Positions 13,838-55,370 of a stretch of 64,000 nt of DNA are shown here, piece after piece. The translations under genes and the position numbers were made by a program. The notes below the pieces were generated by a model, which was not told where the DNA came from, ran no database searches, and was given only the letters and a program-made list of their open reading frames with translations. Positions within the stretch are counted from its first letter, which is position 1; each line of letters opens with the position of its first letter. This stretch comes from Marsupella aquatica (taxonomy: Eukaryota > Plantae > Marchantiophyta), in contig OZ316895.1 in assembly GCA_973895155.1 (NCBI GenBank), positions 19,482,803-19,546,802 of the forward strand. The letters run 5' to 3'.

Positions 13838-14105
13838 AACCCCAATTTAAGGAAAACCGAACTTTGGAAATTCCGAAAATCACTAAATATTATTATTTTA
13901 ATAAAAAGGGGGCGACATGACGCGTGGCTGTGCGTGAAACCCTGAAAATGACTGCAATGTCACATTTTAACCAATCCAACTTGACGGGACCAAGAGACAT
14001 GCTCACGCAAATAATAATAATAGAGAAATAAATCTTTGAGATCCTTTATATATGATAACCAGTATATAAGGAGTTTACAAATGGTTTCTAGAACGACAAT
14101 ACAAA

Positions 14106-14834
14106 TTAATCTGATCTCATGCCGACTATTATTTTGGAAGCATCCAAAATTGGGCGTCTGTTAAATTGCTCTACTAGATATCTATCTCCATGCCTCTGAA
14201 TCACAAGGTCTTCCCATAGAGTATGATTATAATCATAATCTCTAAAAATAGATTTAACTGACCAATCTGGATAATCTCTTCCATTGGCAATGACAAGCGG
14301 CTCACAAGAGTTTGCTAGCTTGCTAAGATACGGAATCAGCAAGTTAATCAGGAAACTGTCGTCGACCGACCCAAAATATTTGGGCGGAAATAATGATCCA
14401 ACAACAGGATCTAAACAAGCATGAAATGCATCGGATTTGATAAACATTATATTTTGCTGCAGATATGCCTTCGTATAAATTCCAACCTTCTCAAAACACT
14501 TCAAAAATATCCGCTTATTTGATGTCACCCCATCGCATAAGTAACAATGAGACTGATCCCAAATATACTTAAATGAGGCCATTTCCATCGCAGTAAAAAT
14601 AGATGCTAAAATCTGATCTAAAAGGTTCTTCCCAAGAGAGGACCAGATCCCTACATCGAAATTCTCAAAACAGAATCTCAAGAATTCGTGAAGATGAGGC
14701 CTTGGAAAAATGTATATATTCCCAATCCGAATTCCAGTTGAGACCGCCATCAGTCGGGAATGCGGTGCAGTGTAACAGAGTAGATGCTCCACGTCTAAAA
14801 CTATGAGCCCGTTTTCTCTGCTGCAATGAATCTC
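14106..14834 (-). CDS. FCP1/NIF-type HAD phosphatase-like domain, copy 3 (probable alternative terminal exon)
   Basis: LIVLDVEHLL...RPHLHEFLRFCFENFDVGIWSS...YIWDQSHC...FLK. Phase-0 acceptor tttctctacag| at 14835. The DxDxT motif is degenerate. Confidence 0.75.
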   Translation of the reverse strand, partial: EIHCSRENGLIVLDVEHLLCYTAPHSRLMAVSTGIRIGNIYIFPRPHLHEFLRFCFENFDVGIWSSLGKNLLDQILASIFTAMEMASFKYIWDQSHCYLCDGVTSNKRIFLKCFEKVGIYTKAYLQQNIMFIKSDAFHACLDPVVGSLFPPKYFGSVDDSFLINLLIPYLSKLANSCEPLVIANGRDYPDWSVKSIFRDYDYNHTLWEDLVIQRHGDRYLVEQFNRRPILDASKIIVGMRSD

Positions 14835-14920
14835 CTGTAGAGAAACACAAGAAGATGCATGAGCCCGTATGGATGTAGTCACGCGAATGGTCACGTCACA
14901 TATTACAAAGAAAACATCCT

Positions 14921-15628
14921 CTACACTCTGGCCATTGATAAGTGACGTTTGTTGAAGTGCTTGATAAGAACTTGATCCACATGTCTCTGCACGTACAGAT
15001 GCTCCCATATATCCTCGTTCAGATCCCAATCTCGATGTAGATTTCTAATCGACCAGATGGGATAATCGAACTTATTAGCGAACGCAAGACAAAGCCCTGA
15101 ATTTGATAGCTTTCGTAAATATGGAATGAGGTCATCCCTCAAAAAGACATCATCCAACGATCCTTGAAATGACTTAGCGAACAATAATCCGCATACAGCT
15201 GTCTGGCATGTATGGGAAGGACAGACATCAATCTGGATTATATTCTCTGGTCGATAATCTTGAAACATATCACGTAGTCTCTCGATAGATTTGAAGACAA
15301 CAGTCTTATAATTTTTCTTCACATAACCAAGATTCCAGCAATGATCCCGCGTGAACACATATATCAGCTGCGACAGGTCGGTGCTCGACAACACTTCTGA
15401 AAGTATCTGATAAACCAGTTTATCATCGAGAATAGACCAGACCATCACATCAAAATGATCATAACAAAATTTTATAAGATCATGAAGATGCAGCCTCAAA
15501 ACGACACATAGAGATCCGATACGAATTCCGGGTGCCGACTTGAGCTGAGGAGTATATTTTGAAACAGAGCACAGGAAGTTTTCCAGTCCTAAAACTAGAA
15601 GTTGACGCGACCTGCTTCACTTAGACAC
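14921..15628 (-). pseudogene. FCP1/NIF HAD-like domain, copy 2 (probable alternative terminal exon)
   Basis: LLVLGLENFL...RLHLHDLIKFCYDHFDVMVWS...FTRDHC...ENIIQIDV. Phase-0 acceptor catttacag| at 15629, with an in-frame TGA at codon 4. Confidence 0.7.
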
Positions 15629-15753
15629 CTGTAAATGAACAATTCGATTCTCATATTATGCAATTGCAAACAACCACGCGACCGGGCGCGTCACTCCCAA
15701 AAGTTCAATTTCAATCAATTTATAAATAATAATTGATAATAAACAATAAACAT

Positions 15754-18700
15754 TTACTTATTGGACTTATCCCGGGCTTCTATAGCACGGTCTTTTTTGG
15801 CAAATAAGTATTTCATAAATTCGTCAAACTTTTCTAAATGGTCTTTATTCCCCTGATTACGAATGATCACGTTTCTCCTCCAAAGATTCGTCTTATCAAT
15901 ATAATCTTTCTCAAGATTTCTTGAGAGAACGTTGGAATCCCATATCCACTAAGGAGCTCGCGGAATGTCAACTTGTCAATTGACATGTCGCATAGATATG
16001 GATATAGTTTCTTTCTAAAACATAGGTCATCATCGAGCCCAGAATATGCATCGGGATACAACGATGAATAGAAGTCATTAAGGCTCATCTTATATGCAGC
16101 GTCATCGATAAGAATGACATTCTCGATGTTGTAATCTTTAATATCGGCGGCAATGTCCGAGAGACATTTGACAAATAAAGGGATGTCATTATTATTCTTC
16201 CCAATAAGTCGAGTTGATTCTTGTCCCCATATAAATTTAATACGTTTCAAAACTTCGGGTCGAAGTATCAGCCTTACACAAGATAGAATATTCCGTTTGA
16301 ACATGCACGACCAGATCGCAATGTCGTATAGATCTGCCACCTTCTCAAGAAATTCCATTAAATCAGGCCTTGGATAGATAACCTTGTGCATCTGTCTCAC
16401 ACCCCTTGACCGAATGGGCATCCCAGGGCTAATCTTCTCTGACCAGATAAGTACCCGATTCAGATCAAAAATTACAAGTCTCTTCTGAACCGGTGACTTC
16501 TTTGCCGATGGATTAGGCGCCATCTGTACCTGTGATTTTTGTGCCGCAGGTTTGGTCTGTTTGTTTCCCGCCTCCGGACGATCATCAGACTTCCGGACTG
16601 GTGCCTTCGATACTCGATCAGGGAGTTTCGGGATAGGCTTCTGTAAAACATTAAGAAATGAAAATAAGTTTATAACGCGAATGGTCGTGTGACTACAAAG
16701 AGAGACACTAAAATGAAGTGTATTACCTGTACAAGACGGTCATTCAGTGCTGGAATTCCACCGGAAATGTCAATCATAGCAGCACGGATCCTGGTAACTA
16801 GGTTACTTGCGGACGTCGGCTTGCGGAAGTCCATGTCAAATAACGACAAGACTATCTCCCTACGGAATTTCTCAATTTGATCCGCGGCAAAATTAATTCC
16901 GTTTCCTTGACACAAGCACTTGGCGTATCTCAAGATAAACACACCACAACTGTGGCCGTCACTCTGGTGAGGAATATCATTCCGATATATCCGTTCCCAA
17001 CCTGAGAGATCCAAGTTGACACCAGTTCTCCAGCCAATTTCGTCGGCGTAGTACTTCCCAACAATATCTAGCACCCTAGGATTTTGACGATTATGAACTA
17101 GAGAATCTAGGTACTCCAGCCGTTTCTCCTTCGGATACAAGACTACCAATGACTAATGTTCTTTCACAGCATTGTGTACTGGAAAGACCAGTTTCTCGTA
17201 TTCACTGATTTTTAGCGGAAACTCCTTTGTCCAAGCTGCTCTCTCCTCGTCGAAAATGGTAGGATCCATGGAGAGAAGCTCAAAATGGTGTGTTTGGAAG
17301 AATTTCACAAGGTCTGACTTTCCAACTCTATCGAGAATCAGTTCGAGAAAACTCAAATAAGCGTTAATTATATCATCGGTGAGCAACTCGCGCGGTCTTA
17401 GACACATCATATGTTTCCTCTTGATCGAGTGTTGTAAGAACTTGGTCAATAGCTCTTCCATATCCTTAGAAGGATCAAGGCGTTGATCTATTCGACTAGC
17501 CAAATTTTCAAAAAACTGCAAAAAATAGAGATTTCAGAACGCCTTCAAATAACGTACTGAGGTTGTAGCCTAAGGGTTGTAGCCTCAGAAAACAGAAACA
17601 ATAATAGATCAATACTAAAATAATGACATCTATAATAGAAACTTTAAGCTTATAGCTTGCGAATGACCTTTGGATTGGGTGGATCCGGCCTTTTCGCAGC
17701 TGATCTCTTGGGTGCCTCAATCGCAACAACATCCTTCAGCCCTCCTCGAGACCGTAGTGATCGCTCCACCGGACCAGTTTGCGAAGGTTGGAGCGATGAG
17801 GCGGGAAGACCTTCAAATGGTTGTGGCATTTGATTCAAATATTCCACAATCTGGGAATCCGATTCCAAAATATCCGGTGCCACAATTTCTGCGCGAGTCA
17901 CCTCTGCAATATATCGGGGTCGAGACCACGAACCCGGTCGCGTCAAGTCAGCTATTAGTCTCTTAACGACTTGAGCCGAGTCTGGTGCCAAAAACGTTCC
18001 CAGGTCTTGCACTCGATTCTCAGAAAAGCGGACATTATTGATGATTGTCTCCATTCAGGATGCAGTGGCAGTCTTCTCCTCGGTAATCAAAAGACCCTTC
18101 CAATATTGCAAAGCAAGGACTGCCTGGACTTGGAGCTGCTCCGGTGAATATTTATTCCAATCATCCAACGACACCGTACTTAAGGGTGGATCGTTAAATT
18201 CAAACTCCGGGCGAAGAAAATAGTCTAATATTTTCTTCTTAACTGCAACTGAGGGTGAAGAAGGCTTCTTCAAATTCAGCTGTATTTTTGGTAGACGTTG
18301 TGCCTTAGGAATAAGCGAAAGATCCTTGGCCCTCTCGGCCTCCTTCCTCGCTGCCTCCAGTCTTGCGGCTTCTTCTCTCTCCAGTCTTGCGGAATCCACC
18401 TTTTCCGCCTCCAACTTCTCCGCCTCCACCCTCTCCGGTCTTGCGGTCTCGTCCGCCATCCTCTCGGCCAGAAGCCTCTCAGCCGCCTCACTCTCCGCCT
18501 TGGCCCTATTTTCCTCTGTCACTAAAAGGACTCTCGCAGCCTCCGCTTTCTCAGCTTGGGCTTTCTCAGCCTGGGCTTTCTCCGCCTGGGCTTTCTCCGC
18601 ATGGGCTTTCTCAGCCTGGGCTTTCTCGGCCTCCACTTTCTCGGCCTCCGCTTTCTGAGCCTGGGCTTTCTCGGCCTCCGCTTTCTCAGCCTGGGCTTTC

Positions 18701-21700
18701 TCGGCCTCCGCTTTCTGAGCTTGGGCTTTCTGAGCCTGGGCTTTCTCAGCCTCCGCTTTCTCAACCTGGGCTTTCTCGGCCTCCTGGGCTTTCTGAGCCT
18801 TGGCTTTCTCAGCCTTCGCTTTCTCAGCCTGGGCTTTCTCGGCCTCCGCTTTCTCAGCCTCGGCTTTCTCCTTCTTCTTCGCGGCAATTGCTTTTCTAGC
18901 TGCTGCCTTTTTCTTCTTAACCTCCTTCTTTTGAAGCTGCTCTTGTCGGGCCGCCTCTTGTCGGGCCGCCTCCTCCTGCCGGGCCGCTTCCTTCTTTTGA
19001 AGCTCCTCTTGCCGGGCCGCCTCCTGCCGGGCCTCCTCCAGCCTGGCCTCCTCCTGCCGGGCCGCCTCGTGCCGGGCCTCCTCCTGCCGGGCCGCCTCCT
19101 CTCTGGCCTCCTCCTTCCGGGCCGCCTCCTCTTGGTCCACCTCATGTTGAGGCTCCTGTGTGGCCTCTTCATCAGAGTCCTCAGCATCCTCGAAACCCTC
19201 CATCTCCTCGTCCTCTTCATCAGCGTCCTCAGCGTCCTTCATCTCCTCTCCGTCACTCTCTTCATCTCCTCTATTGTCGGAATCTCCGACGTCGTTCTGC
19301 GTATCGGTCATCCACTCTGGATCTTGGTCATTGACATCCCCATCCACGTCACCTTCCGCGTCACCTTCCCCCTCACCATCCGCATCACCATTGCTCCCTG
19401 CATCCTCAACATTGAAGCCGCAGTCGACTTGATTTGAATAAAATCAGATCATTTGATAAGAATGACTCACGCGTGAAAAGAAATGTTATGAATGTCCACG
19501 CGCATGTTCGCGTGACGCAATAAAAAGTAAGAGGTTTCAAAAGTAACTTACCTTGGATTGGCCCACTAGGGTACTCCGTTGGTCGAATGTACAATCGATC
19601 GGAATCTTTAGAGAGTGCATACTCTTGCAATAATTGATTACAAATATTATCAGGGATATGTTGTTCGTGGAGGACATCCAAAACATCAGCCCTGAGAGCA
19701 GTTACGGATGGACAGTACTTCATTAATTTATCTACACATTTTTCTATACTAGCCCGTACTGGGTCAATCAATGATAGCGTTGTATCAATTGTCGCCGTGG
19801 TGTGTTGCAAGAAACAAGACAACTCCCTATGCGTTGCCACAGGGCAGTAATATTTTACATTGGATCCAGCATCCTGTAAAAAAGCCGAAATTAGTTCACA
19901 ATATTAATTGAGAATATAATAATCTAAATAATCTTAAAATCGAAACCCCAAAATATAAATCTCAAAACTTACCATTAAGCACTGGATCAAGTTCGTTCCC
20001 TCACCGAAGCATATAGCCCATTCCCCACATTGGACGAATTGACTAACAATACTTTCAAAGAATGGAAGTATCTTTTCTGGGGAAGGTGTCGTGAACTCGT
20101 CGCTCTCTTCAAAATTGGATATTTTTTCAATCTGATATTTGGAGACCAATTGGAACTCGAGGGCTTGTGGATCGCCCATTGTGCTGAAGGCCAAGCTGTG
20201 AAAAGTGTAGGTTACAATAAGCTTCTTCTCCTTCGGCCTCTTCTGAATATAATGGCTATCGATAGCAACGTAGTGTGTGTACTTCCCTAATTCCCGTTTG
20301 ATTAAGTAAGACTCAACAGGAGAGGCTACAATAATAACCACATGGTGTGGTTTTGCCCCTATCTCGCTAGTAGCACGAAATAACCCCTCATAGAATGAGC
20401 AATTTGGCGGACGCAAATCTCCCATTGATGAGGGATCAAAATAAATCAAGCTTGCAAGGTTCTTGTCTTCACGTATGATACAGTCTACAAACCCAGCATT
20501 TTGTATATCCTGCAGGGATCGCAATTTCAGCCTCTCACCGACCGGCCGCACTAGTTGGTTTCCTTGACTATCAATTGATTTCTGTATTCCTTCTACCAAC
20601 CTATAGAATATAGGGTCGATCTCCTTCAACAAATTATCATTACTAATATTTACATTTAAGCACTTCTTCAAATAACCACTCAACGCATCTCTCAACTGCT
20701 TCAGCACCATCTTGTCAAGCTTAAAGCGATCAATCATTCCTTTGACCCGCAATTTCCACGCTGAATCTGTCAGACTTTTCAGCTCCGTCCGGGTGGATGT
20801 TTCCCCGTTGAGTTTACTCAATAATAAAATCTCAAACTCAACTTTCGTCTTCTTCTTTATACAGAATTGCTCCAAACTCATGCTGGTCGTTGACAACACT
20901 GGAGCCTCAGAGGACTTCCTCGCCTTCCCAGATTTCACTTTGATGCTTCGGTTTTTGAGTATAGACAGTCTTCCGCTCAACATATATTCCGCTGCCTTTC
21001 GAAGAACCGAGTCTGAGCACCCTTGACAAGAACGGAACGTCTTCTTCAGAAGATGATAAGCACATGGATTATCCGCAATTTTGACGGCGTCCCTCTGTAA
21101 AATTCCGTTGTAAATTACAAGCTCTCCTGTCCTTGATAGTTTGTAGACCTCCATCCACTTCTTGAATGTTTCGTCCTCCATTGTAAAGAGAAACGGAGCC
21201 AATTCTCCAAATTTCATCATTTTGTTCTTCCCCATTTGAGCCCATGGGCAGACAAAACTCGTAGCTCTCATAAATACCTGAAAAACAATGGAAACATGAC
21301 AATTCTAAGCTTGACGCGACCGTTTGCATGACAAAAGTTTATACGATAATGTGATCGAAGAGGGTTATTTATATACCTTCCAATTTGGATGACGATAATG
21401 TGATCCAGACCGCCCAAATGAGTTCCAGATATTACGACACTGTCGTACAATGGTGAGAAACTGTCCTTCTTCCATTGATGTTTGATGATAGTGGTTCAGA
21501 GCTTTCGATAATCCCATCAAATGAACATTATTGTCGTTGTTGAGCGTTGCCCAAAACATTACAGCTTCTACAGTACCGCAAGCGTCTCGTACAACTTGGC
21601 TGACTTTGTCGTCCTCTCTCAGCAATTTGTACGCCATTATTGTGTGCTGGCCTCCGAGTATCCAGAAATGACTGGTCATAATGTCCTCCTCCTTTGGCGA

Positions 21701-22615
21701 TGAATCATAGGGCGTCCCATTGTAGTCGGGATCTCTGTCGGCCTCCGACTGAACCCACTTCATAGGGACTAAAAAGTAGCATCGCTTCTTAAACTTTATA
21801 GCCGAATGAGAGAGGAGTGAATTCTTTAGCCTATCTGTGTAATCCTGATTCCACTCTCGGCACTTGATGTGGTCCGGTGCAAGATGACAACGTGATGTCT
21901 CAACAAAAAATGACTTGCTGTTAAATATATTCACAACACTATATTCTTTGAGGAAAGAATCGAACAGAGCCCCGACATTCGCTGAGGTAATTACTTTCGG
22001 AAGACTCTCCGCCGAGTATACTTCAACCTTGCTCACTGGCGGGGCCTTTCCCAAGCGAAATCCCTGGTTGAAAGGAACTCTCTGGAACTCAAGTACGTCA
22101 ATAATGTATTGACAAATCAAATCTCCCGTTGATGCCTCTGGATCGGAAGGATATCCCACACTAGTAACCTTTTCCAAGGCGTGCCTTGCACCTAGAAGAT
22201 CATCGATTCTGGGCTGATTGAAGGTTACATATTGCGTTCAATCCAAACAAATGCTTATTTTGTCTTCCTGCTGGTCGTCGCTGACTAGCAGAACCAATCT
22301 CTCTGTACACTCTTTAACTTTCATGTTCTTCTCAAAGAAACACCCAAGAATTTTTGATCTCTCCAAAACTGTAGCTTTATCATTTCTTGCCACCACAAGA
22401 CGGACAGCCCCATTGCGAACGACTATTCCAAAATCGGATATCTCAGTCGATTCAGAGAGATGGATACTCTTTGTCTCCGTTGTTCTCTCTCTGATTGACT
22501 TTCCTTGATATGCAAGTATGAATGTCTCCGCGGGAGTCATTTTTGTCTTGGCTTTCTTTCGAGAAGCAGCTTTAGACGAGTCTCTTTTCCGCTTTGAGGT
22601 TCCGGTAGGATCCAT
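15754..22615 (-). pseudogene. Spliced ~2,100-aa cargo polyprotein: ParB-like / degenerate beta-class MTase-like / acidic and coiled-coil repeats / Ulp1 (C48) protease / FCP1-HAD copy 1
   Basis: Exons 22615-21377, 21277-19973, 19873-19552, 19427-17668, 17515-16727 and 16640-15754 are all GT-AG and phase-compatible. Motifs: FWILGGQHT; ASLIYFDPSS and PEK..FFESIVSQFVQCGEWAICFGEG; DDIINAYL, PVH..EH*SLVV, YLDSL, QSDGHSCGVF; LVIFDLN, RPDLMEFL, VILIDD. Nonsense codons at 22238, 18055 and 17153, and a frameshift at ~15925. Confidence 0.75.
18536..19135 (-). repeat. Coding 15-bp tandem repeats (EKAQA/EKAEA; EEAARQ)
   Basis: Arrays such as gctttctc(a/g)gcctgg and ctcctgccgggccgc encode a charged coiled coil inside the polyprotein. 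Confidence 0.9.
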
Positions 22616-23221: not shown

Positions 23222-23255
23222 AATATGGAAAAGATTAAGAACAAGAACCTATCCA

Positions 23256-24439: not shown

Positions 24440-24576
24440 GACTCTTTTCAGCCAAATGATATATCCCAGAGATTATTTTCACGCGACTGGTCGCGTCTAC
24501 AAATCAGAATGCATAAACAATTTTTTGAGAGACTGATTTTTTCGGGTCACAACGTGAAATCATAAATGTTGCTTCG

Positions 24577-25245
24577 TCCTCTAACAGAACCAGTCAATGA
24601 GAGAGCAACCTCAGACGCGATTGGTCGCGTCAACTGAACCTAAACAACTATATCCACTGAACCTTCTGTGGAGATTTGGATATGGTACGCGCTCAGTAAA
24701 TCTATCCAGTTTCCTTCTCACACGTGACTGGTCGCGTCAACTGGTCCTAAAAGGAACCTTACCTCCTCTAACAGAGCCAGTCAATGAGAGATCTACGTCA
24801 GACGCGACTAGTCACGTCAACTGGTCCTAAAAGGAACCTTACCTCCTCTAACAGAACCAGTCAATGAGAGAGCAACCTCAGACGCGACTAGTCGCGTCAA
24901 CTGAACCTTAACAACTATATCCACTGAACCTTCCTTGTGGAGATTTGGATATGGTATGCGCTCAGTAAATCTATCCAGTTTCCTTCTCACATGCGACTGG
25001 TCGCGTCAACTGGTCCTAAAAGGAACCTTACCTCCTCTAACAGAACCAGTCAATGAGAGAGCAACCTCAGACGCGACTGGTCGCGTCAACTGAACCTAAA
25101 CAACTATATCCACTGAACCTTCTGTGGAGATTTGGATATGGTACGCGCTCAGTAAATCTATCCAGTTTCCTTCTCACATGCGATTGGTCGCGTCAACTGG
25201 TCCTAAAAGGAACCTCACAGTATTTTCATGCGACTGGTTGCGTCA
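24577..25245. repeat. Compound tandem repeat (~80- and ~185-bp units) carrying the ACGCGACTGGTCGCGT palindrome
   Basis: cctctaacagaaccagtcaatgagagagcaacctcagacgcg... occurs four times; ORFs at 24597 and 25053 are near-identical. Confidence 0.9.
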
Positions 25246-28200: not shown

Positions 28201-28409
28201 ACTCATAGATTCATGATCAACTAGTTTAACACAAGGGAGAGGCAAAACTGCAAAACTTAACCATCTCTCTACACTAGGGGAAGAGGTATAAATAGTGATG
28301 AACTACAGAATAAGAGGTCACAGGGTCGAAGAGACATGCCTCTTCATAACCCTCAAAAAGTCAAAACGACGATTCAATAAGTGGAAAGCCGGAAAAAATG
28401 GCTAAGTAT

Positions 28410-28500
28410 GAACTCTTAAACTCTTAAAAACTTAAACTCTTAAAAACGTAAAAACTTAAACTCTTAAAAACGTAAAAACTTAAACTCTTAAACTCTTAAT
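28410..28500. repeat. AACTCTTA-type short tandem array
   Basis: aactcttaa / aaacttaa / aaacgtaa units. Confidence 0.8.
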
Positions 28501-28704
28501 TTCGGTATACTAAAAATTGAGTAGATTCAACTATTTTTAACTTTCTACTCCTGGTTCGGAAAACTCTGAAATTTTTCCAGCAGGGTTTCCTAGGTACAGA
28601 CTACAGCCTAAAGAAGTCTCATAGCTTTTAAAGCTCTACAACACATTTAGAAAAATTGGTAAAAGTACTATACTTTTCAATACTAGCTAAAAATATAGTC
28701 TCCT

Positions 28705-31101: not shown

Positions 31102-31304
31102 AGCTCAAATTCTGCTCACTGAGCTACGCGAAGAATTGTTTGGAGTCGAGAGCGATGAAAGATGCAGCGGAAGAGAAGTCAGGAGTGAGCGCCTATGTTC
31201 TGGATTCCTCCCCCTTCAAGGCCTGCTCCTCGTTTTGTTGCAAAGTCCCGTTGGAGTTAGCCGTAGCCTGTCACAATCGCGGGGCTCGCCAGTTCGCAAG
31301 TCGC

Positions 31305-39649: not shown

Positions 39650-40355
39650 ATGAGAAAGTCACAAAAAATGTTGTTTTTCACAACTTCTCAAAAAACTCGA
39701 AACTCAACACCGCCACGTAGCCCACAAAGCTAGGAGTCCAATACTGAAAACCAAAATCAAAATCGAAATTTGACGGAAAAGTTATTCAAATTTCGGTCGA
39801 GGTGGGTAAAACCTTGGGAAACTCCCCCGTTTTGACCACCTCAGGGAATAACCGAAATACCAAGTACAACCCGTTGTCGGAATTGCGATGTGATTGGTGC
39901 GCTGCATTGCCAACTTCAATGGCTACGACCTCACTTGTCAACAACGAATGTTGATCAATTGCACTTGGTGCCGTCACCAAGTCCAACAAGGTAATTGATT
40001 TTGCTTAGCCTTCCTCTTTGCATCAAAGAGCCAATCCCGGACTCAAAAACAATCGTCTTGCCTCAATCTCTCCGTTGAGTCAAAACACTTGACGCTTCTC
40101 CCTCCGAGTCGATTGCCAACTTTCTTCACAAAATCCAGAACGACGAAAACTTAGATCTCTCTGCACCACGAGCTCCGTTCAACGATTTCTTCACACCGTT
40201 AGAAAGCTCTTGCCCTGATCTATCCGTTGAGCCCATAAACTCCAAGTTCCATGCGATGGAACTCTGGAAAATCCACCAACACTCAACGCTGGAAAAACCG
40301 TCATGAAATCCCGTCACGAACACACGTCACCTCCCAAGCATGCTCTGATACCAAT

Positions 40356-40776
40356 TGTTGAGCATAGACGACGATCGCAACGGCAAGCCCATGAACCATC
40401 CAACGCACAATAGTCGACACAAGAGATACGTGGTTCACCTCCTTGAGGCTACGTCCACGGGAACACACAAGAGAGCTTTACTGAACTCTAAGCCCGTCGG
40501 CTATACCGAGTCTCCACAGTGTAAGCTCTTCCTATCTCTCAAGTGGCTCCATAACAATGAGCCTTGGTTCTACCTCTCCAAGCACACATGCCTCTTATGA
40601 TATAGTGTGCAACTTAGTTGTACCTAACCACATAGTTGTACCTAATCACGTAGTTGTACCTAACCACATAGTTGTACCTAATCACGTAGTTGTACCTAAC
40701 CACGTAGTTGTACCAACCCACGTTGTTGTACCAACCACGTCATACCTAACCTAGACGTAAGAGTAAATACCCAACA
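40356..40776 (-). repeat. Copia 5' LTR
   Basis: Matches 34730-35150 and lies next to the tRNA-iMet PBS. Confidence 0.95.
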
Positions 40777-44316: not shown

Positions 44317-45317
44317 TTGAAACAATGAATGATAGTTTAATTAAGGATTTGTGCATGGATCAAGAGATACTTGATGTCATTTAGTGATGCATTGTTATAA
44401 AGATCTTGTAACAAAACATTTGAAGTTTTTGACTATCCCACCAAATGTTAAAGAGGTTGATCATTCACACTAGTACATTTTCGGGCCTTTATTCGATAGG
44501 ATTTACATCGGATCCCTTCAGGAAAATTGCCGCAAAAATTTCTATCATCCGATGCAATTCCCAACGCACTTTGCGATGCACAAACCATCGCATATCGACC
44601 ATCGGACTTCCATCGGACTTTCCGATATTTTGGACAACGGACGTTCCGTTGTAACGTGTTACGGATATTTGATGTCCGATGTAAAATGGATCGGATACTT
44701 AACACGCGACGGAACACAACGATTTCCTATGTCCGATTCTATTTAAATCGGGATGTCCGATATATTTGATATGGCAATTTGTGAAGTAATTTGTATCGGA
44801 CATTGCGTTATTTATATTAACGGAAAGTGCATTATTTTTTGTATCGGACTATCCGATATATTTAAGATGGGAACCTTGAAGGAGGGGTCCGATGCGTTGG
44901 GGATGGGAAAGTTCGAAGGCAACAGAATCGGACACTGCTATATTACCGATACGGACGGTAACGGACTTGCAACGGATTATCAAATGTTCTGGGGGTGGAA
45001 TACAGGGTTTCATGGGTGGTTTTTTGGGGGTTTGGGTATTGGTTTAGGGTTGAAGGTGACATACACCAATTAGGAACCAAAGATAATGCTATAAACACGA
45101 GGTCAAAATATCAGATTCAAAAAGGGGATCACCCCAATATGTACAAAATGGATTAGGCCTACTGGGTAGACCCATCCTGGTCGTGATGGCACGATAGAAG
45201 ATGTAAAGTGAGCTTTGACTAGAGACTACACTGAGCTATATACAAGGTACCTCCTAGTGAGTGTCTAATCAAAGCTGTCTAGCACTAGATACCCGGCCAC
45301 CTAAATGCAACTAACCT

Positions 45318-47791
45318 CTAAAAAGGTGTGTTGCGTCCCTTCTTCTTCTTTGGGCGAGAACGAAGGGTGGGTACAGGTCTAGCATCATGAGAGCCCTCCT
45401 CCCTCTGGCTGCCCACAACCGTGGCAGCCACCTGCTCACCAGATGGCATGGGTTGGCCTGATGCAGGCCTAGACCCTGACCCACTAGATGCACCGCTAGG
45501 GTGGTCAGGCAAGGTAGATGTCCCACCAACCCCCGACATGGCAGAGTGAAAGGACGCCTCAGCTCCTCCCGCAGACCTGCTAGAGTGATGGGATGGTGCG
45601 CCGATAGATCCTGTGGGTGGCCCATGTCGTGTTGTACTCCCACCAGACTCACGAGATGGTGCGCGCCCTCTAGATCCACCATCCGGCACGTCGCCACTAC
45701 CTCGTCGGGAAGGGCCACCTGCACCAGATACTCCTACGCGATCGCCTCGTCCCATGCCATCACCTCTACTACCCCCTGAGTGCTTGGGCCCCGCACCCCG
45801 TGATGCTCCAAAGCGATGGGAGCCCACACCATCAGCAGCATGTGACCCACCCCTCCCTGCTGATGGGGCAACGGCACCAGATGGGGCAACAACACCTCGG
45901 GCCTGAGAAGTAGGGGTCACTGTGGGCACCCTCCCCAACCCTGCCTCAGCATCCTGCTCAGAATCTGAGTCCAACTCCTCCGACCCAGACCCCTCCTCAT
46001 CCTGCGCAATAGGGTTTAATTGCAATTAGAATGAATGGTCCCGACCATAACTCTAACAAATTCATGACAACCTTAAACATTATATCACCCTAGGATGAAC
46101 ACTTACCTCTCCCAACTCATCCTCAAGGTGGCGCTTTAGAGCGCGGGGTCCATCCGTCTTTGCCAAATTCCTCTCCAATGGCGCAATAGGGCGACCATAC
46201 TCCCGCTCCTGAAATTTAAAGATCCAAACCATAGAGGCCAGGTTAATATCAAATCTAGTATTAGCGTGCCCTACCCTAAACCAAGCCACCCTACATAGCC
46301 CTAATGTAACCTTAAACCATAGTTCACCCTAAATTATACTCTACCCTAGTAAAAAATTAACGTTAAGTACGTTCATTCAAAAATTTAAATGTTTTGCCGA
46401 GGGGTCCGATGCAGAGTCCGATACAGCCTGCATCGGACGTCTATCGGATGCGTAACCAAAAAATGGCATGACACGGTGTCCAATGCTGCTTCCGATGCAA
46501 AACCTATCGGATGAGTATCGGAAAGAACAGGCCCGAGAGCAAAAATGAGTTTTGCAAAGGGTTTAAACAAAAGACATAAGGCACAAACAACTCATTCTTT
46601 GTGCGAGGAGTCAGGTGATCAGGGAGTCGAGGTGGGGAGCAGAGGGAGGGCACTTACAAACTCAGCCTTCAATCGATTGGAGCCGCCTTGCCCCATCCGG
46701 TGAATGATGGTTGGCCTCCCCTGCACTCTCTCCAATGCTGCTATGATGTGCCTTGGTGGTTTGGGGAGTCTTGCTGCCTGAGCTGCCCATTGTTGCAGGT
46801 TCTGTTGAAGGGGGAGGATATCAACATTCTCCCCAGCCTTTCGCTTCTCCTCTGCCAGCCTAATTTTGTTGTCCCAATGTCTTCTTTTCAGCCAAGCACG
46901 GACTGAGAGTTCCTCCTCAAGCCAAGCCGCCCACTCATCCGGGGAAACATCGTCTGGACAACCCTCCTCCCTGATCACCTCTGCATCCACTGCCATATCT
47001 CCAAGGTACTTTCTGAATTTGTCTCGCTGATGATTGCGCATGTCTGAGAGTGATGCTGAAATTCATTTGTTTAGGAACCTGTCATCAATGTAGGCCCCGT
47101 TCCTGAACCGTTCCTTCACCTGCTCTCTGATTCTCAATCTCTCTTCCTCCTTCTTCTTGCCCCAGTAATCCAGTGGCCCCAAATTGGCCCTCAGCACCTG
47201 CTTGAATTGGCTTTGGAATAGATGGTAGCTCTTAGGCAATGGACCACCACCCGAATTGAGAGCTAGCTTAGGCCTGAGAGCTCTCTCTGCCTCCTTTCGC
47301 CTCTGCTCCTCCAATCGCACCTTCTCAATTGCCCTAGCTTCTTTTCAAAGCTTTTTCTCGCGTTTTCTTGGAGACAGTGTCTCCTCTGCATCCCCCTTGC
47401 CTCTCTTTGCCTCTTTCTTCCTCTTCTTTGCCTCCTTCTCACTTGCAATGCTTGCAGCAGCAGTCTTCTCTGCCTCACGCCGAGAGGCATCAATCAGCGT
47501 TTGGAGGAGTGGGACTACTCTCTATGCGTCCTCCACACTCAACCCTGCCTTGGCCACAAAAATGTCCCTCATAACTTCATTGTATGGCTGGGACGGTCCC
47601 CCTTGCTCTCCACCACCACCTGATCCCCCTTCGTCTCCCCCACCACCTGATCCCCCGCCCCCCTCCATCTCTCCTCCTCCTTCAAGCTCTCCTCCTTGAT
47701 CCAGCTTCAAAAAATTTGAAAAACACCAAGTGCGAAACGGGGCCCAACGCGCGGGTCTTCGCACCTGCATCGGTTCTTTTTTCCGAAACAA
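45318..47791 (-). pseudogene. CACTA TnpA-like accessory gene, multi-exon and disrupted
   Basis: Gly-rich N-terminus, coiled coil, PDDVSPDEWAAW and HRMGQGG (Ptta/Transposase_24-like), Gly/Ser-rich tail; internal stops. Exon structure is approximate. Confidence 0.55.
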
Positions 47792-48329
47792 AACCTGCTG
47801 CTTCCGATTCTTTCTGTTTCAGACTTTGCGAAACCAAAGGTATCGGACACGCAATCGGACATTCCGAAACTATCTGCTTTGGACCCCTCGTCCTTTTCTT
47901 GTGGCCGTGTATTTACCAAGTGTGGCCCGTTTCCTATTGCATCGGACCCCTCATGAAGTTATATCGGATACCTCTTGGCTTTCCCCGAGGGGGTCCAATA
48001 TAATGTTTTGAATTTGGGTTGGGTATGGGATTGGAGGGTTTAGAGTATAATTTAGGATATTTAGGTTTTGTATGGGGTAAGGGCACATGGTTGGAGTTAT
48101 TATTTGCTTTCATATTTGAATCCGCGTTTTGTAGGGCTCTACATATGTGAACGGGACAGTGAACGTGTCATGCATGTAGAGGGACCTCTTGCAAGTTTCT
48201 TTGTTGCGGAGAACAAATTTTGGGATTTGTACCGGACTATGTAGTTTTTTTGATAAGCTATGGTCTTGCATGCTTAATATATTGGGCTCTAATTAATGAT
48301 GCAATTGTGTATGGAGTCTTGGTGTTTTA

Positions 48330-49040
48330 GGGGTGGTTGTGGTGATGGGAACTCAATACTATGATATGTAATATAGGATCAAGAAAATACTACAAGAAGT
48401 TTTTGTATGAACCATTTTTGGGTTAAAGCCTTTTGTTTCATTTCTTTATAGGGGATTATGGGTGTACGTAGAGGTTTTATTAGTATAACATTATACCTTT
48501 TGTTAGGATAATATTAAACCCCTTCATTAGGCTAATCTTTGTGTTTGGATTTGATGTGTAGTACCTTGCTTTTGGAGGGGTGGTTAACTTTTTTTGAGGG
48601 GGTAGGGAGGTTTCGATTTTGGACAATGCACTATGCATGAAACCGTGCATCCAGGAGGTATGATGTCCTCTTGCAAGTTCCTTGCAAGTTTAGGGATGGT
48701 TGTGGTGATGGGAACTCAATACTATGATATATGATAGACAAAATACTACAAGAAGTTTTTGTACGAACCATTTCTTGGTGAAAGCTATTTGGATCATTTC
48801 TTTGGAGGGGTTTATGGGCTTAGGGTTATGGGGTTTTACTAGGATAAGGTTACACCTTTTCTTAGGATAAGGTTCAACCTCCATATATATTAGCTAGGCT
48901 AATGGTTGTGTTGGATTTGATGCACAGTACCTTGCGTTTGGAGGGGTGGTTCAATGTTTGTGAGGGGGTAGATAGGTTTTGTTTTGGACAATGCACTATG
49001 CATAGTGTGAGACCGCGCATCCAGGAGGTATGATGTCCCC
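48330..49040. repeat. ~360-bp tandem duplication in the CACTA divergent spacer
   Basis: ggttgtggtgatgggaactcaatactatgatat...catccaggaggtatgatgtcc occurs twice. Confidence 0.85.
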
Positions 49041-49326
49041 GCTTCACGAGCCGCATCATTTACACTTAATTTGTATGTTGGAATTTTTTTATATGTGGTG
49101 TGTTCTTCCTACACTCTTTCGCACTTACAGATTATGTATGCTCATTAGCAAAATGCTCACCCATATATGCAGAGATTTTGGATGTCCCACACCTTGTGTG
49201 TAGAAAATACGACACAATAGGCTGGCAAAGCGCGGGTATCATTGAGGTACAACAGACTTTTGTATCTCATGCATTAATTAATTCTATTTTGATACTCCAA
49301 CACTTGTCTTCTTTTATGCAGCTTAC

Positions 49327-50682
49327 ATGAATTCAGAGTGTACTTCATGCATGCAGATGTCTACTTCTGATAGTTCCACGTCAGATTCAGACTCAGACAC
49401 AAGCTTGTCTGAGGGGGAGGTTCCTCCACCCCCTCCTCCAGATCGTCCTCGTGCTCCACTAGGACCCATACCTTGCTGGTGTGTGAGATGTAAGGGACTT
49501 GTGGTTCGACATGCGTGGGAGACTTGTGAGCACATCGAGAACTATGGCCGCCACAAGGGTGATATGCCAGGGTATTTTCCTAGCCAGGTACAGATATGTT
49601 TATGTCCCCTATTCATTCCATATATGCATTCCAATTTAGGGTATTGCTTAATTATCTTGCATTTACATCCTGGCACTACTTAATTTATTGATTTTTGTAA
49701 AACCATTGTACGTGTGTTGAAATAGGTGCCTCGTAGGCCCCCACCTCCTTTGGTTCCTGAAGCTGTGTGGTTGGAAGGGTTTCTAGCAAGGGCCAGGGAG
49801 TTGCTTGCAGTTCCTCCTGCCCAGATGCCTCTTAGCCCACCTGCTCCTATCCCCACTCCCATGCCCACACATGAGCATGTAGAGGGGGAACCGGTCTCTC
49901 GGCCCGAAGTTGTGACTAGTAGGGTCCTACGTACACGACCACGATCTGGTAGACGTAGACGACAGTATGGACCACTGGACCAGGTAGACAGACGAGAGGA
50001 GGTGTTAGGTACTAGTGATCGACCAGCCGGTAACGTAGATTATATTTGCGTTGAGGGCAGGTTTGGACTATCCTATCTCACTGGTAGGGCTGCCGAAGTT
50101 TTGAAGGACTTTTCTCCAAGTCTCTTCAAATTTCCAGATTTTATTCCTACAGATGAACCAGTTCAGATATGGGGTCGCCCTTGGATAGTGAAGGCATCCT
50201 CTATTGATCCTGATATAGGATATGGTCTTTTTGCTTTGGAGGATATTGTGGTCCCTCCAAAGCCATGGAGACGTGGTTATGATGGAGAGCACCTCTTTCC
50301 TTACATTGGGGCTGTATATAACTCCAAGAGTTGGAATATTTTGTTGCGTCAACACCCAAGTTGGGGGGTGTATGCACTGAGGATGGACTCAGACCCGGAT
50401 GAGGTCTTCACTAGGCCGTGGCATTGCCGGATGATTGATGGTGATCCTATTCGGAACGGTAATTTAGCAGGGTACATCAATAGTACCACAGGTAGAGATA
50501 GAGGTTTGGAGGCTAATGTAGAGTGGATTCAAATGTTTGGTCCACCTAGACATCCATATTTTGTGAAACATATGGACGACCATATCATGACAGTAGCTGT
50601 TAGGATCATTAGAGCTGGTGAGGAGTTATTGTGTGAGTATGAGTGGGATGCACCAAAATTGTCCTTGCGTTGTCGTCCATGA
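49327..50682 (+). CDS. Transposase-associated Zn domain fused to a SET-domain protein; exons 49327-49587 and 49726-50682
   Basis: Exon 1: PCWCVRCKG..EHIENYG. Phase-0 intron gtacag..aatag. SET motifs IGYGLFALEDI, GNLAGYINS and IRAGEELLCEY. No stops. Confidence 0.8.
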
Positions 50683-50809
50683 TAGTTTCTTGGACTTACA
50701 TACATGTATATATATATATATGTCAGTTTATTTTACATGTTTACATGAGAATGATGTTGTTCAGCAGTGCATGTGTTGATGAGATTAATTAATTGATGTT
50801 GTATGATAG

Positions 50810-53800
50810 AATCAATATGTAACGCCTGATATTGGGGTAATATCACGAGCTATGCGACAACACCTTGTTGAGGCCATGGTGGCCAACCGTGGGCATGAAC
50901 CGCAAAGGCAAGAGGATGGGGTACGACATGATGGTGATGATCCTATCCAAGACCATCTTGATGAGGAGAGGGCCATGGATGAGCTCATGGACCAATTCTA
51001 TGATGATCACGATGACATTGGTTTGGAGGACATTGGTTCAACCCATGAAAGGACTAGTCATCCACATCCTTCTAGGGGGTCCCAAGACAAGCAATGGGAG
51101 GAGGCGCAACGTCATGCCCGTACTCGCATATTCGAGGGGAGTAGGTTATCTCGGCTCTCATCAATAATGTTGTTGCTCAACTTGCAGCAAAGACATGGGG
51201 CAAGCTAGCAATCTACTTTTGGATGATGTTTTCCGTACCTTGCATGATCGTATTTTGCCAGTATGCAATGCATTGCCAGCCTCTTGGAAAGAGGCTAAAC
51301 AGGTGTTGAGGTCCATTGGCCTGAAGTATGAGGTGATACATGCATGTGTGGATGATTGCATTCTTTTTAGGGGTGAGCATGAAAATGCCACTACATGTCC
51401 TAAATGTCAGAAGCCACGGTACCGTGATGACATGTTGACGGGGAAGGTACCGCAAAAGGTTATGAGGTACTTTCCTCTTATCCCTCGATTGCGACATCAA
51501 TTACGATGTGCAGAGTTGGTTGAGATGATGGTATGGCACTCACAAAATCGTTCTGATATGGCTGTACCCTCTAGTGCCATGCGGATGATGGTTGACTCTC
51601 CTGCCAATCGATTTGTAGAGGATAGATGAGGAGAGTTCAAAATTGACCCACGACATGTTCGACTAGGCTTGGCAGCAGACGGTATCAGCCCTTTTGCATT
51701 GACAGGAAAAGCCAAACCATATTCGGTGTGGCCAGTAGTGTTGACAAACTACAACATCCCTCCTTGGATGGCCATGAAGAAAGGTCACCTACTACTCTCC
51801 ATGATTATTCCGGGTCCTAAGCAAGTTAAAAAGATTGATGTGTACTTGCAGCCATTGATTGATGAGTTGATACAACTGTGGAGAGGAGTGGATTGTTATG
51901 ATGGACGTCACAACACAGGAGGTTTATCCCGCGTATTTACTCTAAAGGCCATCCTTATGTGGACCATGCATGACTTACCAGGTATGGTAAACCCTTATTT
52001 CCTCTAGTACCTAAACCTTGTATTTAATTGCAATTATGCAGATTTTTGCCTTGATGAACCTTATTTTATGAATGTGTTTTCTATGCACTGGGCAGGGTTT
52101 GGATATGTTTCTGGATTGCAAACATCAGGCTATCGAGCTTGCTCTACACGTGGACCCGATTTGGAGGGGGTGGCCAGGCCCAAGTCAAGTACTCTGCAAA
52201 AAATTGTTTACATTGGTCATACTAAATATCTTCCACCAGACCATCCTTGGAGGAGTGATCCATTCCTTTATGATACTGATGAGGGCCAACCTGATATTCG
52301 TCCTCAACCTTAGCGGAAGAATCCAGCATATTGGAGAGAGGTATGGGGGAGAGTTCAGGATCCGAGTGATCCATTACCATTATTCAGATGTGGCATGACC
52401 CGTTTGTCTGCATTGTCACAATTGCCATATTGGTCAGATATGCCCATTAATCACTTGTTAGACCCTATGCACATTGAGGGGAATGTGGGGAAATCATTGA
52501 TTCGCCATCTATATGGGGAGAAAAATAACAATTGGAGAGAAAGTTGTGAGGAGATGGGGATGCATGGTCTTTTGGGTTTTTGGCCATCTTTGGACCCCCC
52601 TGGTGCTCCCCCTAGCATCCATCCTCCTTGGGTTTTGACAAGGGCAGAGCGCATTGAGTTTCACAGACGTATTGGGTTGATGAGGTTTCCCACAGGTTAT
52701 GGTACCAATCTTCGGAAGGCATTTGGGGGGGAGGATTCTCCAAAATGGCCATCTTTCTTGAAGACACATGATTATCATCGGTTGCTTGAACATGTTCTTC
52801 CAGTTGCTATTATTGGATTGGGTAGTGAGGAACTTCGTGATGCCCTTTGGTCATTGGGTAAGCTCTTAAGATGGGTATGTCAAAAGGAGGTACAGGAGTT
52901 TGATGACATTGCTGCTATGGAGATATTTGGAGTAGAGGTTGTCTGCAAGTTGGAGAAGGCACTCCCTCCCTCATTCTTTGATGGTCAGGTTCATTTCCTC
53001 ATACATTTAGTGCGCGAGGTTGCAATTGCAGGCCCAGTACATTGTCGATGGATGTATTGGGTAGAGCGTTATATGGGGGTGATGAAGTCATATGTCTTTA
53101 ATCGCGCTAGGGTGGAAGGTAGCATTGCGGAGCGTCATCTTGGAGCAGAGAGTATGTTTTACTGTACAAACATAGTTGCCACACTAGATCCTAGTGCTCC
53201 TAGGGGATGGATAGATGAGGCGGCACGAGAGGCTGACTACGAGGATGATAGACTCACTGGGGCATCTGGAGAGCGTCTCATAGGCTCAGCAGAGCGTTTA
53301 CAGTTCACAACATTTATGTTGTATAACTCACCCGAGGTTGTCGGGGAGTGGACAACATTTTATGAGGAGGAGAAGCAAAATAGTCGATGCCCACAGTTAT
53401 TTCCCAAGTTTCACCCATACATGAAGGAGAAGTTGTTAGAAGTGGATACCCTGGTGGGTACCGAGGAGAGTGTATTACACTACCCAAACGTGACAGATAA
53501 ACTTCGTACCTTGGTTCATGGTCCACTACTTATAGTCACGACTCGGACTGCCATGTGGTCAAAGGGGAGACATTTTCGTGTGGAACGACTTGATGAGAAG
53601 AGGGCAGCTACACAGGATTGTGGGGTGATGGGTTGGTTCACCCAAGATTCCCAGAGTAGCATGTCAGACATGAATCCCATTCGCTCCACCGTGGCCCATT
53701 ATGGGAAGATTGAGGAGATCCTAACAGTGAAGTACCATGCACATACTACTTTGGAGGAAGTGGTATTCAAGTGCAAATGGTTCAAGATGAATCTTGTAGG

Positions 53801-54059
53801 CCACAATCGTACTTGTGAAGATGATGCATGCGGTTTTACTCATTTGAAGACATCCGCAAATAGTGTCATCAGTTCCAACTGGAGGTCCTCAGATCCCTTT
53901 GCTTTCCCCCATCACCTTGAGCAATGCTTTTACCTACCCTATCCCAATGACCCCGAGTGGTCCATTGTCATGCCGTATATTCCCAGATCACGGTCCATAG
54001 TCCAAGAGAGACCCAATGTAGTTGTGGTGGAAGATAGAGACATACCCCCCACGAGTTAG
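50810..54059 (+). pseudogene. CACTA TnpD/Tnp2 (Transposase_21) transposase
   Basis: IHACVDDCILF, CPKC, YFPLIPRL, GLAADGISPF, SVWPVVL, DVYLQPLIDEL, HDLPG, DPMHIEGN, KTHDYH, WMYWVERYM. Intron 51982-52095, frameshift ~51200, stops at 51627 and 52311. Confidence 0.92.
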
Positions 54060-55370
54060 TATAAATTGTAGACCCCACCATTTTCATGTATATTTTTACC
54101 GGCACTATCTTTTTATCGGCATTCTACGATTTTTCTCATTGTCCACAATTTCATGCAGTATACATATCTATTGCTTAAAGTATGCCCCATATATGAATCC
54201 ATTAATTCCATGCAACCTACACATTGTAAAACACTAAAGTCCCATATGTCCCATTCAAATACCATCGGAAACATATCGGACACACATCAGTACTGCCAAA
54301 GCAAAAAACCCCTTCCCATCCTCAAAGTATCGGACTTTCCGATACTATAACAATCGGAACTCACTATCCGATACTCCACAGATCGGACACTTAAGCCAGA
54401 GCCCAAGGAGGGGTCCGATAGCAATTTCAACGGATAGTAACCGATACCTTAGCCTTCGCAAATAATTTCTGTTGCAACTAGTATCGCAAAAATATGTCCG
54501 ATAACACTTCTATCGGTAAATGTCCGAAACCAAACCTATCGGAATTAGCTTTCGATACTATTATTATCGGATGTCTGAAAAACATGTCGGCTCTCAATTT
54601 GCGATACAGGATGTTTCGGACATTGTCCGATATAATGGGTATTGGATAAAGTTTTCGATACAAAACATATCGGATAATAATGTCCGATTTTGGTAGTATC
54701 GGAAGTGTTCCGTTGTGTTTAGTATCGGGCGCATTGAGAAACGCGTGTTTTTAATATCGGAAAAGTGCCTAAAATGTACTAGTGTCATTAACTAATAATA
54801 TTTAGATAAAATTGGAATTAATCTAATACTTCAGTATTCCTTAAATTGGGGTTCTTGGCCTATCAGAGCAGGAGGAGCTAACCAGTCAAAACATCGCAAG
54901 GGTATAAAAGGCAAGCTCTTCCCCATCTCAAAATCACCAGTTCACTCCGCACGTCAGCTTTGCTCCCAGCTCCTCTGTTTCCCCCTTAGCGATCTTGCAC
55001 ACCTTGCCATATGTCTATCACGGTTATGTCTAGTTTTGCCATTTGCTTTGGGTTCCACTTTTTAAGCATTGGTAACCATCTTGCAGCCTCGCTCGCCAAG
55101 CACAACCCGCGCAAGTACAAAGCCAAATGGCATTACAAGCGGCTTATTTGTTTGAACGGGCATTCGCACTACAATAATGACCTAAATCTTCCGTTTGAAA
55201 GCAAGTATTGTTGGGATGAAGAAATAGTCAAGTTCTTCTTTGAGGGATCCAAGTACCTCGGCTTCAGAGAAGCGCTCTTTTGACTCCCAGACGAGGTCTT
55301 CAAGATCTTACAGCGCCATCACTTTGATGATATACCGGCCAGGGTGTAGTCCTTCCTTTGTCACACCATT

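Follow-up and report, generated by a model that had tools for sequence, protein, structure and literature searches.

The analysed window, a 64,000-nucleotide stretch of the liverwort Marsupella aquatica, carries at 13838-54853 a dead member of a cut-and-paste transposon family, 20.5 kb in size and likely of the Sola1 type. The family is probably of liverwort origin. A transposase gene occupies the plus strand, and about five genes lie on the opposite strand, namely one eight-exon accessory gene, three F-box-like ORFs and one ORF of 182 aa. This cargo diverges from the transposase, as the original prediction had stated, and the gene heads meet at 33.2-34.2 kb. The features, in window coordinates, are the following.

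13834..13837, no strand: left target site duplication (TSD), CTTG, from sequence
13838..13854, +: left terminal inverted repeat (TIR), perfect over 17 bp and imperfectly matched out to about 60 bp, from sequence
14106..22615, -: accessory gene with eight predicted exons, the splice sites taken from the sequence
14106..16640, -: exons 6-8, three FCP1/NIF-like domains
16727..17515, -: exon 5, SUMO-protease domain of Ulp1/SENP type, having the residues His, Asp and Gln-x5-Cys; an in-frame TAG follows the His
19973..21277, -: exon 2, conserved domain without assigned fold
21377..22615, -: exon 1, ParB/sulfiredoxin-fold domain (predicted fold), motif ILGGQHT
22694-23224, 23259-23822, 23987-24439, -: three tandem paralogous F-box-like ORFs, 24-31% alike
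24481..25243, no strand: tandem array situated upstream of the F-box-like ORFs and containing 8 palindromes (<=1 mismatch)
27499..31589, no strand: nested insertion of 4,091 bp, TG..CA ends (TGTAG..CTACA), 5-bp duplication CCACA, 799-aa ORF (-), from contigs and sequence
31819..32378, no strand: tandem array, period 247, with 4 palindromes
32628..33170, -: ORF of about 180 aa, Cys-rich start
33835..34111, no strand: pair of perfect palindromes where the heads of the divergent genes face each other
34218..43534, +: Sola-type (DUF7869) transposase gene, about 1,040 codons, from motifs and Pfam
34730..40776, -: nested Ty1/copia retrotransposon within the transposase frame, LTRs of 421 bp with a single difference, GGGAA duplication
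44468..54784, +: nested CACTA transposon, duplication TCA, Tnp2 transposase and SET-domain ORF
54837..54853, -: right TIR, 17 bp, from sequence
54854..54857, no strand: right TSD, CTTG, from sequence

Boundaries, transposase and copies

The perfect 17-bp TIRs and CTTG TSD of the original prediction are present at both ends, and among the perfect 17-bp inverted repeats of the window only the 13838/54853 pair has a flanking 4-bp duplication. Beyond 17 bp the similarity between the TIRs is weaker, reaching about 60 bp. The TIR and 4-bp TSD expected of a Sola element are thus seen in one copy, where a reading with TT duplicated and a TIR of 18 bp fits the sequence as well and leaves an identical empty site. 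The 17-bp reading is favoured because Sola1-1 of Ectocarpus has an AACC terminus and a 4-bp TSD (PMC12477816, in the portion available). The termini, AACCC..GGGTT as against AACCG..CGGTT in Sola1-1_Ec32, resemble those of described Sola1 (same portion of PMC12477816). The CTTG target, a single site, differs from AWWT, a preference stated for dictyostelid Sola2. The left terminus had no match in 96 related loci, and where related loci showed short TIR and duplication pairs, these resembled random AT-rich matches.

Removal of three nested insertions leaves a core of 20,548 bp. The previously estimated core of about 24.6 kb is too large, since it allowed for two insertions (Copia and CACTA) and 27499-31589 is also nested; contigs in 3 of 4 runs lack this insertion and pass straight across. 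Its 799-aa minus-strand ORF was accordingly rejected as cargo. The SET ORF was likewise rejected as part of the nested CACTA and, being the sole SET (chromatin) domain, takes with it the earlier claim of chromatin-type cargo.

The transposase displays the motifs HDKMD, QLDNC..NKN and GHTHEDVD, bearing out the DDD transposase proposed before, and matches Pfam DUF7869 (E 5e-36). These motifs, or DUF7869, we take to denote Sola1. The closest named relative is from Calypogeia fissa. The gene is broken in this copy, with a reading frame split by the Copia element and a frameshift near 41,150-41,200; one intron is predicted at about 42,160-42,356. The catalytic motifs of Sola2, DFKEN and HGKS..D, carried by two dictyostelid sequences in the available part of PMC3627910, were not matched by eye in this transposase, and PMC6431247 makes no mention of Sola.

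In three runs the contigs show a roughly even depth over 13.8-27.1 kb and over 31.1-31.8 kb; run X5 (low depth over the cargo) was left out. Moreover, X2 contigs at a depth of 430-490 are about 1% divergent from the window, compared with a depth of about 15 for diverged single contigs, all of these being rough figures that do not equal copy number. The earlier overall reading of a large multi-copy Sola-type family is supported, apart from its size and gene count, and it had missed the ParB/Srx fold and the palindromes described below. Among 80 related loci, three have an FCP1-like ORF divergent from the transposase, which amounts to one of the 63 distinct loci, and the relative with this linkage has 42% transposase identity.

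The accessory gene and its neighbours

About eight non-transposase ORFs had been claimed, most of which turn out to be exons of one gene. In order, this gene carries a ParB/Srx fold, an unassigned domain, an acidic/charged repeat tract, an Ulp1 protease and three FCP1/NIF-like domains. The exon 1-2 junction is supported by spliced homologues, and later junctions, with the borders of exons 3-8, follow our reading of the sequence. The exons are predicted to encode one polyprotein through the Ulp1 and three FCP1-like domains. In the present copy the gene is interrupted by four in-frame stops and probably also by a frameshift; the exon 1 stop at 22238-22240 is missing from most contigs of three runs.

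Exon 1 is predicted to have the ParB/Srx core fold. Its AlphaFold model (pLDDT 78) aligns to KorB with a VIA-align Z of 8.3 (94 aligned, rmsd 2.9), borderline for the range that the tool rates as common, and all 8 of 48,161 chains at Z>=5 are of ParB/Srx type. The top Foldseek rows are ParB, PadC, Noc and Srx (best E 0.004; none at E<=0.001). Furthermore, the ParB CTPase arginine motif, GxxRxxA, reads GGQHTIMA here, and the family alignment has GGQH(T/S) without the arginine. No helix-turn-helix was identified in the protein. Given both observations, DNA specificity and CTP clamping are hypothetical. By Atlas features exon 1 is nearest to DUF3723 (0.95, weak recognition 2014), with no Pfam DUF3723 match.

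Homologues with 25-57% identity keep the frame and the motif, and one of them is a Calypogeia fissa gene annotated as spliced. Genes of Calypogeia fissa related to the element include CAM6097985.1 and CAM6127292.1-like ones. There were 26 representative matches, of which 24 were aligned after exclusion of P0096 and P0109 as repeat-driven chance. Longer ParB relatives were found among none of 903 candidates, and homologues in none of 39 stretches of viral contigs. Sixteen GTDB matches, mostly on short MAG contigs and none with a cargo homologue, are probably misbinned eukaryotic DNA. Additionally, the ParB profile had no match in the 96 related loci, though these carry their own palindrome.

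Exon 2 had no match in Pfam, NCBIfam, PDB or Atlas, and its single-sequence model (pLDDT 36) is too poor for fold comparison. An assignment as methyltransferase, suggested at first by a visual likeness to motifs of that family, was not supported: against 15 PF01555 proteins the hhalign probability was 0.9%, equalled by 1 of 30 shuffles. Exon 5 has the His-Asp-Cys triad and Gln of Ulp1/C48 (PF02902 E 4e-10; SENP2 E 1e-9). The three FCP1-like domains all exceed the PF03031 cut-off, yet read DLNRV, GLENF and DVEHL where DxDxT is expected and so lack DxDx(T/V), which we take to be the FCP1/SCP catalytic motif. The F-box-like ORFs (Pfam E 0.002-0.011) fall below the Pfam cut-off, and no family was found for the 182-aa ORF. 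Of the SUMO, ubiquitin and phosphatase effectors first proposed, the SUMO protease is upheld, and the other two are better called F-box-like, below cut-off, and phosphatase-like, without the catalytic motif.

Palindromes, CpG footprint and competing readings

The core contains a palindrome, ACGCG-N6-CGCGT, a 16-bp site. All 20 matches in the window (<=1 mismatch; 0.2 expected) lie inside the core, a count equalled by 0 of 100 shuffles. Exons make up 63% of the core and hold no match (0 of 9 independent clusters, p 1.4e-4); the palindromes occupy introns, spacers and tandem arrays and run through all core segments. Related loci bear another palindrome, of the GGTGGCCACC type, with 58 occurrences in 29 of 63 distinct loci versus 0-3 in 10 shuffles, the motif having been chosen after inspection of the same loci.

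The two halves of the element also differ in CpG content. At silent sites across codon junctions, CpG observed/expected is 0.85 in the cargo (119/140) and 0.33 in its own transposase (18/53.8; p 1.6e-4), and the NCG share is 0.21 versus 0.056 (p 6e-8). CpG loss is common to this transposase and every other transposon of the window (Copia 0.40, CACTA 0.29, Gypsy 0.12). Host DUF220 exons (CpG 12/13.9) are preserved like the cargo; since host genes also retain CpG, ordinary transcription could yield the same footprint. The cargo of this copy has stops at TGA codons, indicating that dead copies do decay.

We give about even chances to the reading that the ParB-fold accessory protein binds ACGCG-N6-CGCGT and thereby shields the cargo half of a Sola1-like family from CG methylation. 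The transposase would cut at the TIRs, producing 4-bp duplications, and docking on the palindromes would fall to the ParB domain or to some other region of the accessory protein. There the Ulp1 domain might strip SUMO from silencing factors, as suggested for Ulp1-bearing VANC (KIU) proteins, and the FCP1-like domains, which lack the catalytic motif, could serve as decoys together with the F-box-like proteins. The cargo half would thus likely be kept free of CG methylation, and the transposase exons, which have no palindrome, would stay methylated in the majority of cells, with loss of CpG as the outcome. The present copy was presumably killed by point mutation, the three insertions coming afterwards.

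The palindromes could instead be sites for a host transcription factor of the CGCG-box type, with the cargo unmethylated through host-like transcription and the ParB-fold protein doing something else. The equal CpG retention of host DUF220 exons, the palindrome arrays ahead of each gene head and the lack of an identified helix-turn-helix suit this account, but none of the 20 matches falls in the 43 kb outside the core, and the relatives' different palindrome better suits a fast-changing element-encoded reader than a conserved host factor; we regard it as rather unlikely. A role in transposition seems distinctly improbable; here the palindromes would be loaded with either the transposase or the ParB-fold protein, and the 20-kb element would be compacted or bridged to bring its short TIRs together. 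ParB clamps spread on DNA, the TIRs are merely 17 bp, palindrome-like sites with 2 mismatches occur close to both ends (at a distance of 70-80 bp on the left, at 44009/44257 on the right), and the GGTGGCCACC-type palindromes cluster near the transposase, 1-3 kb downstream of the catalytic region. Such a role alone, however, leaves the CpG contrast, the intron placement and the SUMO-protease fusion unexplained.

A Pack-type origin of the cargo, as host or foreign DNA that was captured not long ago, has no function and has yet to lose its CpG, would accord with the stops and frameshift and with the lack of ParB cargo in the 96 related loci. The conserved frame and motif of the homologues, including the spliced Calypogeia fissa gene, the absence of the 22240 stop from contigs of other copies and the FCP1-like linkage in the 42% relative make it very improbable. 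We see the slightest chance for an incidental TIR pair around a heap of unrelated insertions: the 10-kb CACTA does separate the right end from the transposase, and the ends of a single copy stand behind the pair, but the TIR and duplication, the AACC terminus shared with Sola1-1_Ec32, one palindrome through all core segments and the flat depth oppose it.

Under the preferred reading of self-protection by a ParB-fold protein, the element supplies one specific protein, one specific 16-bp site and a CpG footprint that can be measured, its own transposase being the internal control. The plant group has a transformable model. The ParB accessory-gene proposal made for algae would become testable, and a new sequence-specific tool for local demethylation may result. 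More tentatively, and with somewhat less than even confidence, this could be a second, independently evolved anti-silencing system of land plants, in which a prokaryote-type ParB fold that recognises parS-like palindromes, joined to a SUMO protease and polymerase-CTD-phosphatase decoys, keeps giant Sola elements unmethylated, the palindrome changes per family, and the ParB module is common to algal giants and perhaps fungal Starships.

Relation to known transposons

Bao et al. in 2009 reportedly described a moss Sola1 of about 15 kb whose second ORF is FCP1/NIF-like, and we know of no ParB, Ulp1, F-box or palindrome in Physcomitrella Sola1. It is likewise a bryophyte Sola1 and is named in a table of PMC9033089 (available in part).

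Sola1-1_Ec32 of the brown alga Ectocarpus, 21.5 kb long, has moss Sola1 as its best match and shares with the liverwort element a size of about 21 kb, AACC termini, a 4-bp TSD, a ParB-like gene opposite the transposase, nested insertions and proposed self-binding (available portion of PMC12477816). It differs in a 282-bp imperfect TIR and in its ParB-methylase of 1104 aa (ParB with N4/N6 methyltransferase), whereas the liverwort element has a 17-bp TIR, a predicted ParB fusion to an unassigned domain, Ulp1 and three FCP1-like domains, and F-box-like ORFs; that portion mentions no palindrome or CpG footprint. Plavaka (EnSpm) of the red alga Bostrychia similarly has a ParB-like accessory gene, PAG3, which adjoins tandem inverted-repeat arrays and is proposed to bind and modify its own element, but superfamily and host differ, the partner is a 2OG oxygenase, and intron motifs are not mentioned in the text available (bioRxiv 10.1101/2025.02.11.637652). 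In fungi, DUF3723 is a conserved passenger of giant Starships, which are tyrosine-recombinase elements; the likeness lies in the Atlas features of exon 1 (bioRxiv 10.1101/2021.12.13.472469, in part).

VANDAL/VANC and Kaonashi of Arabidopsis share a family-specific short motif in introns, intergenic or terminal non-coding DNA and tandem repeats, and an accessory protein, sometimes with Ulp1, causes loss of methylation (PMC5735166, PMC13317346, both in part). VANDAL, however, belongs to the Mutator superfamily, has no TIR and uses a 9-bp non-palindromic motif, with a function proven there and presumed here (same portions). The liverwort transposase is DUF7869, not Mutator, and its cargo has no VANC family match in Pfam. 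VANC also acts over whole elements, and the CpG-poor transposase counts against a VANC-like reading. By analogy, a Sola1-type family with VANDAL/VANC-like self-protection is still the best reading, for which we infer binding and demethylation. The original view that such an element was not described in plants needs qualification: a brown alga has a giant Sola1 whose ParB gene sits on the strand opposite the transposase (PMC12477816, in part), and no description of the land-plant version, its domain set or CpG footprint was found in the literature searched. The design is partly published, in Ectocarpus Sola1-1 and red-algal Plavaka, and its land-plant version, domain set and CpG footprint appear to be new.

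Termini, nested insertions and copies

The element is real, and the termini proposed in the original prediction are borne out: a perfect 17-bp inverted repeat at 13838 and 54853 carries CTTG at either side. Among the perfect 17-bp inverted repeats in the window, this pair is the only one with a flanking 4-bp duplication, and a chance pairing of the ends is considered extremely improbable. An alternative fit of the same bases is a TIR of 18 bp flanked by a TT duplication, for which the predicted empty site is identical. The 17-bp reading is favoured because Ectocarpus Sola1-1 has AACCG-CGGTT termini and a 4-bp TSD according to the supplement of PMC12477816. A second inverted repeat of 17-20 bp (10322-10341 / 58018-58037) is devoid of flanking duplication. 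Three nested insertions, each with its own ends and duplication, leave a core of 20,548 bp instead of the predicted ~24.6 kb:

34730-40776, nested Copia; duplication GGGAA; LTRs differ at 1/421
44468-54784, nested CACTA; duplication TCA
27499-31589, nested TG..CA repeat of 4,091 bp; duplication CCACA

Contigs in three of the four runs join 27492 directly to 31589. Depth is approximately level across the compared core segments and the contigs of high depth show ~1% divergence from the window, which together suggest tens of young family copies, contig depth being no copy count. Additionally, a contig ~85% like the window joins 14726 to 22484 in 3/4 runs; it is a family member with an internal deletion that has lost most of the accessory gene.

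The nested CACTA (10.3 kb) features a SET-domain ORF (49726-50679, PF00856 above cut-off) and further minus-strand ORFs without family assignment; accessory genes of SET type have been reported in Plavaka elements of red algae (bioRxiv 10.1101/2025.02.11.637652). The 4.1-kb repeat at 27499-31589 resembles a very long solo LTR in its TG..CA ends and 5-bp duplication; the 799-aa ORF inside it is intact and has no family match, and high-depth contigs match the repeat near-exactly. A decayed element at 11890-13528, which we take from its motifs to be Harbinger-like, is interrupted at 13529 by a TG-starting repeat, itself the insertion target of the Sola element; loose contig ends in run X5 mark the border at 13528.

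Transposase and cargo genes

The transposase (~1,040 codons, in four pieces) matches DUF7869, bears the motifs HDKMD, QLDNC..NKN and GHTHEDVD, and is collinear with homologues 938-1100 aa long; among its 26 matches the sole one with a name comes from Calypogeia fissa, a liverwort (65%), which points to a liverwort as the likely host. The transposase motifs are unlike those of two Sola2 sequences in the PMC3627910 supplement, and the transposon is likely a Sola1 member; that it represents a cargo-carrying Sola-type family is held with high confidence. Inside the predicted transposase intron, plant telomere-like repeats at 42268-42309 surround a sequence nearly identical to the TIR core.

The predicted eight-exon accessory gene, running from 22615 to 14106, was built from reading frames and GT-AG sites, junctions after the first being predicted from these. 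Homologues continue across intron 1 and across the in-frame stop at 22240, and the stop is absent in most contigs of three runs. Exon 1 has 26 matches among 1.84 billion representatives (24 aligned), and its predicted model (pLDDT 78) structurally matches ParB, PadC, Noc, KorB and sulfiredoxin. CTP-binding ParB proteins have an arginine patch, which exon 1 lacks. Exon 2 is conserved (2 matches) but has no family assignment; a comparison failed to support it as a methyltransferase. Exon 5 is a Ulp1 protease domain, and exons 6-8 are FCP1-like with the DxDxT motif missing. Furthermore, the cargo includes three mutually paralogous F-box-like ORFs scoring under the Pfam cut-off.

Palindromes and CpG footprint

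The palindrome ACGCG-N6-CGCGT occurs 20 times in the window at ≤1 mismatch against 0.2 expected, with 20/20 inside the core and none exonic; at two mismatches, 28 of 38 fall inside the core, two of them exonic. Sites occupy introns 3, 5, 6 and 7 (also intron 1 at two mismatches), and are found in front of every gene head, close to the left end and within tandem arrays. When each array is counted once, 0/9 clusters are exonic (p 1.4e-4). This layout is the same as that reported for VANC targets (PMC5735166, PMC13317346).

With palindrome motifs masked, exon CpG o/e is 0.70-1.05 in the cargo vs 0.29-0.51 in the transposase. At silent positions the cargo reaches 0.85 vs 0.33 for the element's own transposase, with 0.40 for Copia, 0.29 and 0.46 for CACTA, 0.12 for Gypsy and 0.52 for the ORF of the 27499-31589 insert. 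In the lineage of active copies, the palindrome-bearing half therefore seems to have been free of methylation for a long time; the footprint does not tell by what means. Host DUF220 exons show 12 CpG against 13.9 expected, a small sample, and a low NCG share (5/54). Within the window, CpG depletion is greatest in the decayed Gypsy-type gag-pol at 59520-63944 (o/e 0.12).

That the accessory protein guards the element against silencing via its palindromes is a reading to which we give even chances. The palindromes might instead be host-factor sites, which seems unlikely, or might help bring the transposon ends together, for which the prospects are poorer; some do lie close to the left end. The view that the cargo is inert captured DNA appears highly doubtful.

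Relatives and known systems

From 475 metagenome stretches, 80 relatives were kept (63 distinct, mostly decayed, many short-flanked). One distinct locus (3/80) has an FCP1-like ORF on the opposite strand, 5.5 kb upstream; no ParB, Ulp1 or F-box homologues were found in these often short-flanked loci. Across 1.0 Mb of related loci there is a single occurrence of the window's palindrome, and the GGTGGCCACC-type palindrome, discovered in the same data where it was counted, occurs 58 times in 29/63 loci vs 0-3 in shuffles. The latter is arrayed between the two genes of the FCP1-bearing relative L032 and could alternatively serve the transposase as a site or belong to a separate repeat. A DUF220-like host gene adjoins both the element (gene at window 5950-7526) and the L032 locus (gene at 13808-15649), with opposite relative orientations, probably by coincidence. 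In a bacterium-labelled bin (L092 / G002), a 589-kb contig bears a DUF7869 transposase with intron-like gaps, and there are 19 N4/N6 methylase matches; this DNA may come from a eukaryote or a giant virus.

The largely open-access literature searched, without Repbase, yielded no Sola of a land plant that has ParB, Ulp1 or palindromes. Bao reportedly described in 2009 a moss Sola1 of 15 kb with an FCP1-like ORF, in which case the novelty of that domain would be lower. A second, independently evolved land-plant anti-silencing system, combining a ParB fold and palindromes in a giant Sola, is put forward tentatively. The element design is anticipated by Ectocarpus Sola1-1 (PMC12477816) and Bostrychia Plavaka (bioRxiv 10.1101/2025.02.11.637652), and the anti-silencing function proposed for the present element has been demonstrated in VANDAL/Kaonashi (PMC5735166, PMC13317346).
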